This document shows, piece after piece, positions 6,001 to 9,000 of a stretch of 42,050 nucleotides of DNA (its first letter is position 1; each line of letters starts with the position of its first letter). This DNA comes from a virus (lineage: Duplodnaviria > Heunggongvirae > Uroviricota > Caudoviricetes): IMG/VR virus record IMGVR_UViG_2718218402_000004, positions 1 through 42,050 of that record. One strand, given 5' to 3'. Position numbers: made by a program.

Positions 6001-9000
6001 GATGATAATTACGGCTCACCTGCTGGCTGCCGAACTGCTCCGAGTCCACCTGCACGCCGACCAGTGCCGTGTTCGGGTAGCACTGTTTCACATCGATAAT
6101 TTCGGTGTATGACGACCAGAGCGTTTTGTTCTGCAGCTGGTCTGTGGTGCTGTCCGGCGTCATCCTGCGCATCCGGATACTGAACGGGCGCGGCGGCAGG
6201 TTATCCACCACCACCGAGGCCAGATACTGTGAAGTGGTTTTACCCTTAATGGTGATGTCTTTTTCCGTCACCCAGGCCCCGTTACGCTGTATCTGAACCA
6301 GCAGGCGAACCTGCGATGGATTCCTGTCCCCCTTTGAGGTGGTTTCCACCAGTGCCTGCACGCCGAAGTAAAACGCAGACGGTCAATGTTTGCCGACGTG
6401 ATGGTCCGGGTGATCGGCGTGTCATATTTCACTTCTGTACCGAGCACCGTCTCGGAGCCGGAGGATTCAAATCCCTCCGGCGGTGTCTGCTCCTGCTCAC
6501 CGGCCCGGAACACCACCGTGACGCCGGATATATTGGTATTCCCCTCACTGTCCAGCACCGGCGTACTGTTCAGCAGCACACTTTTTAATCCATCCACCGG
6601 ACCTTCAACCGGCCCTTCGCTGATGGCATCGATCACACTCAGTAACTGCGTGGATTTCAGGTTGTCCTTCGCTTCGCGCGGGGTATGCCCCTTACTGCTG
6701 CCTTTGCCCATTCGTCATGCTCCATAAACGACAAAACCGCCCGGAGGCGGTTTCACATAAAACATTTTGCATCAGCGGCCAATCACCACAACCTGACCAC
6801 CGTCCCCTTCGTCTGCCGTGCTTATCTCCTGAGAAACCACACGTGACCCCACGCGCATTTCACCGTACAGAACGGGCAGAACATTACCCTGGGCAACCAT
6901 GTTATCCAGGGAGGAGAAATAGGTGTTCTGTTTACCGTTATCCGTGGTGCTGGCTTTTGCTACACTGGCTTTCGGTGCCAGCATCTGTGCAACACCACCA
7001 AGTGTCATCGCCGCGCCCATTGAAAAGAGAATGTCACTGAAAGCGATACTAATTCCTGGCATCCAGATTGCCGTCGCAATCAGCGCCGCCCCCAGCACCA
7101 CCTGAAACACACCGCCACTTTTAGCTCCCGCCATACGCGGCACGATGTGGATCACTGCACCATTCGCCAGTGGCTCATTAAGACGGGCTGATAATTCGGT
7201 TTCACCTGTATCCTGCCCGGCAATACGTACCTGATACCAGCCCTCGTTCAGTTTCTGACGAAACGCCGGAAGCTGGGTGGCAAGCGCCCGGATGGCTTCG
7301 CCCCCTGTTTTTACACGCAGGTCGATGCGGCGACCAAATCGTTGTAAATCCCCGTAAAGGCAGATGCGTGCCATGCCCGGTGACGCCAGAGGGAGTGTGT
7401 GCGTCGTTGCCATTTGTCGGTGTACCTCTCTCGTTTGCTCAGTTGTTCAGGAATATGGTGCAACAGCTCGCCGTCGCCGCAGTAAATGGCGGCATGATTC
7501 GGCACCGATGCACCAAAACAGCACAGCAGCACAATCGCCCGGTTGTGCCTCTGTCAGTGCGACACGGTAAAACCCCGTCGCCTCCATATTGTCAAGATAG
7601 AGATTCTGACCGTGACGCCACCAGTCATCCCCGCGATGAAAATCCGGTAGTTCGATTCCCGCCAGATGGTAGGCATCCCGGAACAGCGCGTAACAGTCCG
7701 TCACCCCGTGCTCAAAGTGTCGCCCGTTGAGATGCGGCACGCAGCGGAATTTATGAATCTCACCCCGGCAGACCAGCCACCACGGCAAATCACTCTGCAC
7801 CTGCAGCCGCCGGTCGGCCTCACTCAGCCAGGGCAGACCACCGGGGTGGCTGTGGACCAGCGCCACAATCTCACCCTGCATCTCAGCCTGCAGCCAGTCT
7901 TCCAGCGACATACGGAAATACGCCTCCGGCTCACCGGAGATATTCACGCAGGGGAAATATCTTTCCCCCTCCGGCGTGCTTACCACGAAGCCGCACGACT
8001 CCGCTGGCGCACATCGCCGGGCGTGCGCCAGAATCGCTGATTCTGTCTCTGTCATGGGATTTACTGCGAAAGTTTGTTAATGGAAAGGAAGCCGCCAAAG
8101 TTGCCGACGTTATTGCGAAACTTACAGCCACTCAGGCATTTGCTGCATTTATCCTTCGTGATATCGGACGTCGGCTGGTCATATTCATCCGCGACCGCCG
8201 GACCGTGATAACCGCACTCATCACCGCGATAGGTCCAGGTGCAGGTGTTGGCCAGCATGATACGTCCCGGAAAAACAGCGCCATCCGTTTCCGTCGGCGT
8301 GGACAGTACAAAGGAGGCACTCACCGCGCTCAGTTCGCTGCACTGCTCGATGCGCCAGCGGCTGATCACCTCCTGCTCCGGATCGGAGTCGCTGTTTCCG
8401 TTGACGAAGTTCACCGCATCCAGAAAACGGGCGTAAACCTTACGCCGGACCACCGTTCCGCCGACCAGACTCTGCAGATCTTCCGCCATCCCGGTGACCA
8501 TACCGTACAGGTTAGAAACCGTCAGCGTGGGGCGCGTACTGGTGCCTTTGCCATTCAGTTCGAAACCACTCCCCTGAATGGGATACGGCTGATACTGTCG
8601 CCCCTGCCAGGTGACCGGCTCACCTTTTTCGTTCTGCTCATTGCAGAAAAAATAACGTTCTCCACCGACCTCTGTCAGGTCGATTTCCCAGAGCACCACG
8701 CTGGCCGACTGCTCCGCACGGGTGCATTCATTCAGTGTTTCCTGCCGGATATCCTGCATCAGTTCACCACCTGTTTAAACTCTGCGCTGAACTCAACACG
8801 CAGCATACTGACCTGCGACGACCATTTTGCGCAGGTCACCTTTATCTGCCTGTAACCATAAGGCGGCGTCCACAGAAAGGCCTTCCAGCCCCCGTGCTCA
8901 GCCAGAAACGACTCCAGCGCCGTGGCCTCCTCACGGGAGACAGACAGCGTCACGCTGTACGTTTTCAGGTCAACGTTCAGCCCGGCAGGCGCACGCTGGG

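Follow-up and report, generated by a model that had tools for sequence, protein, structure and literature searches.

We analyzed a 42,050-nt stretch of DNA, hereafter called the window, which comprises positions 1 to 42,050 of the IMG/VR virus record IMGVR_UViG_2718218402_000004. The window contains two lambda-like structural gene blocks, module 1 and module 2, which are inverted relative to each other and form an inverted repeat of ~10 kb with 91% identity. The main features are as follows.

1-15911, minus strand: module 1
15912 onward, plus strand: module 2, which opens within nu1
15911-15912, strand not applicable: head-to-head junction, where module-1 E without its first 161 nt abuts module-2 nu1/nohA
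3299-6711, minus strand: module-1 J, for the lambda gpJ tail-tip protein, 3413 nt, frameshifted
31087-34485, plus strand: module-2 J, intact, 1132 aa, which served as the comparison copy

Module 1 carries nleH, the side tail fibre gene, lom, J, I, K, L, M, H, T/G, V, U, Z, FII, FI, and a capsid gene E that lacks its 5′ end. Module 2 is ordered nu1, A, W, B, C, D, E and so on to H, M, L, K, I, J, lom, stf, and tfa, and its structural genes are followed next by cif and nleG. T3SS effector genes flank the pair of remnants on its two outer sides (1-891, 39121-39969, and 40837-41469); nleH, which encodes an OspG-type kinase, adjoins module 1, and cif and nleG lie past module 2. This effector cargo points to an EPEC/EHEC-type host. 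A Cif protein identical to the present one occurs in thousands of assemblies. Within the window, no Q/pR′ late promoter, lysis genes, or cos were found upstream of either module.

The J genes of the two modules were then compared by global alignment. Within the first 2956 nt, the alignment contained one gap, located at J nt 344, which corresponds to window position 6368. The initial annotation had described a single-base deletion in module-1 J relative to module 2, and this gap confirmed it. The elements at the break are listed below.

6368, minus strand: missing-base site; the plus strand has a single G where module 2 has GG
6268-6711, minus strand: 147-aa ORF, starting with ATG and ending with TGA at 6268-6270; 115 native gpJ residues followed by 32 out-of-frame residues
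3299-6361, minus strand: 1020-aa ORF, the remainder of J; the GTG at its "start" encodes a Val within J and has no Shine-Dalgarno sequence

The division of J into ORFs of 147 and 1020 aa, as annotated, was likewise recovered in the ORF listing, with both on the minus strand. Between 6363 and 6375, the plus strand reads ccgaagtaaaacg and the coding strand cgttttacttcgg, and the module-2 counterpart of this stretch is cgctttaccttcgg. The coding strand at 6368 accordingly has ACTTC, versus ACCTTC in the module-2 type or ACTTTC in the type found in locus L007 and strain Nissle 1917. The original description of a deletion in a CC run was right as to the loss of one base, but not as to a clean change of CC to C, since the site lies in a patch with four SNPs, described below, that also allows a change of TTT to TT. 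The two are equally valid descriptions of the lost base. Because the patch matches a haplotype that reads ACT TTC, the lost base may be a T of TTT.

Addition of one C to module-1 J gave a gene of 3414 nt with one terminal stop codon and a product of 1137 aa, the length of J in the relatives L007, L010, and L012-L014. As in a frameshift pseudogene, one base at J nt 344 restores an ORF collinear with intact homologues, and the recorded gene lacks the uninterrupted frame of ~1130 aa that marks gpJ. The repaired 1137-aa J aligned with chain J of PDB 8IYK over residues 1-1136 (E = 0), and its Pfam domains are ordered FNIII-A_GpJ, Phage-tail_3, Ig_J, Ig_J_second, Phage_Tail_Tip, and Ig_GpJ_C, the same order as in lambda gpJ (tip attachment protein J; PDB 8IYK and 8XCG). 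The order of the neighbouring genes (H, M, L, K, I, J, lom, and stf) is also like that of lambda. These results show that module-1 J, when repaired, is a complete, plain member of the lambda gpJ family. In contrast to lambda gpJ, the recorded copy is broken at residue 115. The break lies within the FNIII-A domain, of which only the first ~30 positions are retained, and all other gpJ domains are gone. A J protein that stops at residue 115 could not form a tail tip, in agreement with what had been annotated. Read literally, module-1 J would be a pseudogene, leaving 1020 codons without a start signal of their own. The C-terminal receptor-binding part of J differs between the two modules, and identity drops to ~40% or less in the last ~130 residues.

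Further lesions were found in both modules.

7447-8055, minus strand: module-1 K, 202 aa (247 aa in module 2), with an insertion of one T at 7534
34552-35118, plus strand: module-2 lom, with one additional G at 35095 (GG to GGG)

The insertion in K changes GAT GTG to GATTGTG on the coding strand and breaks the protein at approximately residue 174, and the NlpC/P60 domain is gone. It was not found in module 2, in any relative, or at 6,012 K places in complete E. coli genomes. The frameshift in lom alters the last ~17 residues, giving 188 aa versus 199. The extra G was present in none of seven relatives and at none of 13,396 lom places, and more than 570 complete genomes carry an otherwise identical 130 nt of lom without it. 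At the junction, database matches to module 1 end at 15911 and those to module 2 begin at 15909-15912, with essentially no microhomology between the two sides. Module 1 is without D, C, B, W, A, and nu1, and the nu1/nohA of module 2 is short by ~126 nt (~42 codons). The junction had no match among 5,426 complete E. coli genomes, nor did a 38-mer across it in GTDB representatives, IMG/VR, or JGI metagenomes. From the sequence, the junction may be either a real deletion that fused two opposed prophages or a chimeric assembly join. A 407-aa ORF at 15044-16267 spans the junction and is a meaningless fusion. The J break had been taken to leave the module-1 tail tip non-functional. J is not the disabling factor of module 1, because K is broken, E is cut, and the packaging and other head genes are absent. 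Module 2 is not fully intact either, as it has the shortened nu1 and the frameshifted lom.

Relatives of each module were retrieved through the H gene of each module and through Cif. Four independent draft assemblies (L010, L012, L013, and L014) matched module 1 over 1-15911 with 38 to 40 mismatches and exactly two indels, namely, the J deletion and the K insertion. L010, L012, and L013 had 38 mismatches each, all of which were located within 5456-8490. The ~12.9 kb beyond the tract described below were base-for-base identical to the module-1 relatives, with no substitutions, and all four drafts have an intact J of 1137 aa. The 5,426 complete E. coli genomes searched contained none of the J, K, and lom indels. 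Their 8,708 J places lacked the J deletion, and no match there reached 99% identity, the level expected of a copy with the deletion. A 36-mer containing the deletion had no match in IMG/VR, GTDB species representatives, or JGI metagenomes, and the 147-aa J product was absent, as an exact protein, from the gene index. Exact products of the broken module-1 K, of module-2 J and K, and of terminase A were likewise not on record. The complete genome closest to module 1 was that of 19KM2326N (L001; NZ_CP151038.1, locus 12001-27888), where J is intact. Its prophage has many annotated frameshifts (nleH, tail fibre, K, FI, and terminase) and differs from the window by dozens of small indels. This genome is a poor reference for judging which indels are real.

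The J deletion lies in a tract that is nearly identical between the two modules, and, within it, in a short patch in which the modules differ.

5400-8561, minus strand: tract arm of module 1, 3.16 kb, running from the 3′ end of L through the whole of K and I to ~1.3 kb into J
29238-32399, plus strand: tract arm of module 2, the same 3.16-kb inverted tract
6339-6385, minus strand: patch, 47 bp, with four substitutions and the deletion

The arms are identical save for the patch and the one-base K insertion at 7534. In a four-way comparison of the tract, in which the module-1 relatives were defined as A-type and the module-2 relatives as B-type, both copies showed the same ancestry: B-type from 8490 to 8265, A-type from 8220 to 6260, and B-type from 6242 to 5456. 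Both copies also share states that differ from L010 at 7904 and 7629. As in ectopic gene conversion, the tract is shared by the copies, is unlike outside relatives, and has sharp boundaries. The A-type K-I-J′ segment is rare; its best outside match was 19KM2326N, a module-1 relative, with 98.5%, and the next reached 96.7%. Since this segment is rare and the module-2 relatives carry a B-type one, module 1 was probably the donor of the A-type segment to module 2 within a single cell. The two modules very probably exchanged sequence within this genome, and the mosaic indicates exchange in both directions. A single one-directional conversion was considered for the tract and does not fit, as module 2 has a module-1-type K-I-J′ segment and module 1 has module-2-type flanks. 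The tract arms could also invert the ~20.7 kb lying between them.

The patch is the sole part of the tract in which the copies differ in type, with B-type sequence in module 1 and A-type sequence in module 2. It departs from module 2 at 6339, 6362, 6368/9, 6373, and 6385, and this part of J is otherwise the same in both modules. Informative flanks at J132 and J400 bound its size between 48 and 267 bp (J nt 133-399). Of the four substitutions, three are synonymous in the J frame and the other replaces Asn by Thr. Together they belong to the B-type (L007-type) J haplotype, ATT..CGT TTT ACT TTC GGC..ACC, which is carried by loci L006, L007, and L009, by Nissle 1917, and by the O157 strain PV15-279; most alleles of this haplotype have ACT TTC at the critical position. 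The deletion falls on the fifth site that separates the haplotype from module 2. By this agreement with natural alleles and its mostly synonymous changes, the patch is genuine J sequence and not random error. A copy from a common allele with matching flanks was rejected as its source, as the haplotype is known only with other flanks. The repaired 130-mer had no exact match in complete E. coli genomes, where the best reached 97.7%. At window position 31437 (module-2 J nt 351), we also observed GGA, in contrast to GGT in the relatives of module 1 and GGC in those of module 2; it is a third, synonymous state at a site polymorphic between the haplotypes. The 221-nt stretch around 31437 had no exact match among complete E. 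coli genomes.

We lean slightly towards the reading that the loss of the base is confined to the assembly consensus and that the organism's module-1 J would be intact, with 1137 aa. A one-base length miscall would have arisen in a region where reads could be assigned to any of several near-identical J copies, and mixing of reads among these copies would cause errors at exactly those sites where the haplotypes differ (ACC TTC versus ACT TTC). Among spontaneous mutations of E. coli, substitutions are approximately tenfold commoner than indels. The window holds three private one-base indels in 42 kb, each on a background that otherwise matches other genomes, and the 12.9 kb that could be checked have no private substitution; such an indel-only spectrum is typical of consensus errors rather than of spontaneous mutation. 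It leans the balance towards consensus error, and the caveat of an assembly error in the initial annotation was apt. As expected of a consensus indel, the J deletion is private and lies in duplicated sequence, and the record has further private indels but no private substitutions. Length errors of long-read assemblies often survive short-read polishing in repeats, according to the Polypolish paper (PMC8812927), and the indel errors described there resemble the present ones in being isolated, single-base, gene-fragmenting, located in repeats, and absent from related assemblies. Unlike those errors, the present ones lie in runs of 1-3 bases, and the four-SNP patch is unexplained by a simple length error. 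A technical origin of all three private indels is a step that we infer. Several observations speak against it. The four SNPs beside the deletion separate the site from module 2, so copy-specific reads should permit a correct call there, unless the genome has a third J copy of the patch haplotype. All three indels are at runs of 1-3 bases, whereas 65 of the 65 runs of at least 5 bases were correct in the 12.9 kb that could be checked against relatives; this pattern, with short runs hit and long runs correct, departs from the classic profile of homopolymer-length errors. Errors restricted to long homopolymers were thus not seen, a result that does not discriminate between the readings. Moreover, the lesions in the shared tract are all in module 1, with none in module 2. 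A confinement of the lesions to the identical tract, as expected of unpolishable repeats, is weakened by the lom indel at 35095, which lies outside it.

Alternatively, the deletion may be real, a case of pseudogenisation in a decaying remnant that arose with ectopic recombination between J copies; we regard this as a substantial possibility that falls somewhat short of an even chance. The 47-bp patch would then be a heteroduplex or template-switch footprint of the exchange, and the base would have been lost in the repair of a C/T mismatch or inherited from a donor that already lacked it. The mosaic in both copies, the swap of haplotypes confined to the patch, the rare A-type segment in module 2 with the exchange it suggests, and the natural, mostly synonymous patch SNPs are all consistent with a real lesion, as is the resolution that the SNPs should give to copy-specific reads. 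Module 1 is also a remnant in which no selection for tail function operates and frameshifts are tolerated. Frameshifts are common and documented in lambdoid prophages of EHEC/EPEC-type genomes (PMC2669165), and recombination between phages and defective prophages has been documented (PMC3945230). However, two indels without an isolated substitution over 15.9 kb would hardly be expected from independent mutations, no recombination footprint surrounds the K insertion at 7534, and the lom insertion lies outside the tract, so recombination-linked mutagenesis leaves not all three indels explained. In addition, a donor allele with the deletion was found in no collection searched. It is unlikely that the lesion is the footprint of one recombination-repair event between the inverted remnants, in which segments passed both ways and the frameshift arose at an ACC TTC/ACT TTC heteroduplex mismatch inside the 47-bp patch of switched haplotype; if true, it would show, in a natural prophage pool, template switching and frameshift mutagenesis associated with recombination. 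A functional interruption of J, by a programmed −1 frameshift, transcriptional slippage, a phase-variable repeat, or a split gene, is scarcely credible. A −1 shift immediately after ACT would restore the exact wild-type peptide, but the 118-nt frame overlap contains no in-phase X XXY YYZ heptamer, and its sole XXXYYYZ string, AAAGGGG, is in the wrong phase. The longest run in the overlap is a G5 located ~35 nt from the site, and the run at the site is 1-3 bases, where phase variation would call for a mononucleotide run of ~7 or more or a short tandem repeat. Over its first ~350 nt, the downstream ORF has no in-frame ATG, GTG, or TTG with a Shine-Dalgarno sequence ahead of it, and every other J copy examined is uninterrupted. 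Programmed frameshifting, slippage, phase variation, and restart of J were all rejected on these grounds.

The arrangement resembles the pool of defective prophages in O157 Sakai (PMC2669165), in which one genome likewise holds several near-identical lambdoid modules, with T3SS effector cargo (here nleH, cif, and nleG), frameshifts or deletions in morphogenesis genes, and exchange between copies. Unlike in that pool, two remnants are here fused head-to-head (E′ | ′nu1), no early, lysis, or cos region lies between them, and the defects belong to this record alone, not to a lineage. In such a J, a frameshift of one base is a known and ordinary finding, whether real or technical. As all three gene-breaking indels are specific to the record, any pseudogene call made on this assembly is provisional. 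The consequence would be small either way, since module 1 is without packaging genes and has an incomplete capsid gene and a broken K. If the indels are artefacts, only the annotation is concerned, and the labelling of J, K, and lom as pseudogenes should await support from reads. If the J deletion is real, it would add one more inactivating lesion to a remnant already unable to make heads or tail tips, and host range and the carriage of the effector genes would be unaffected.
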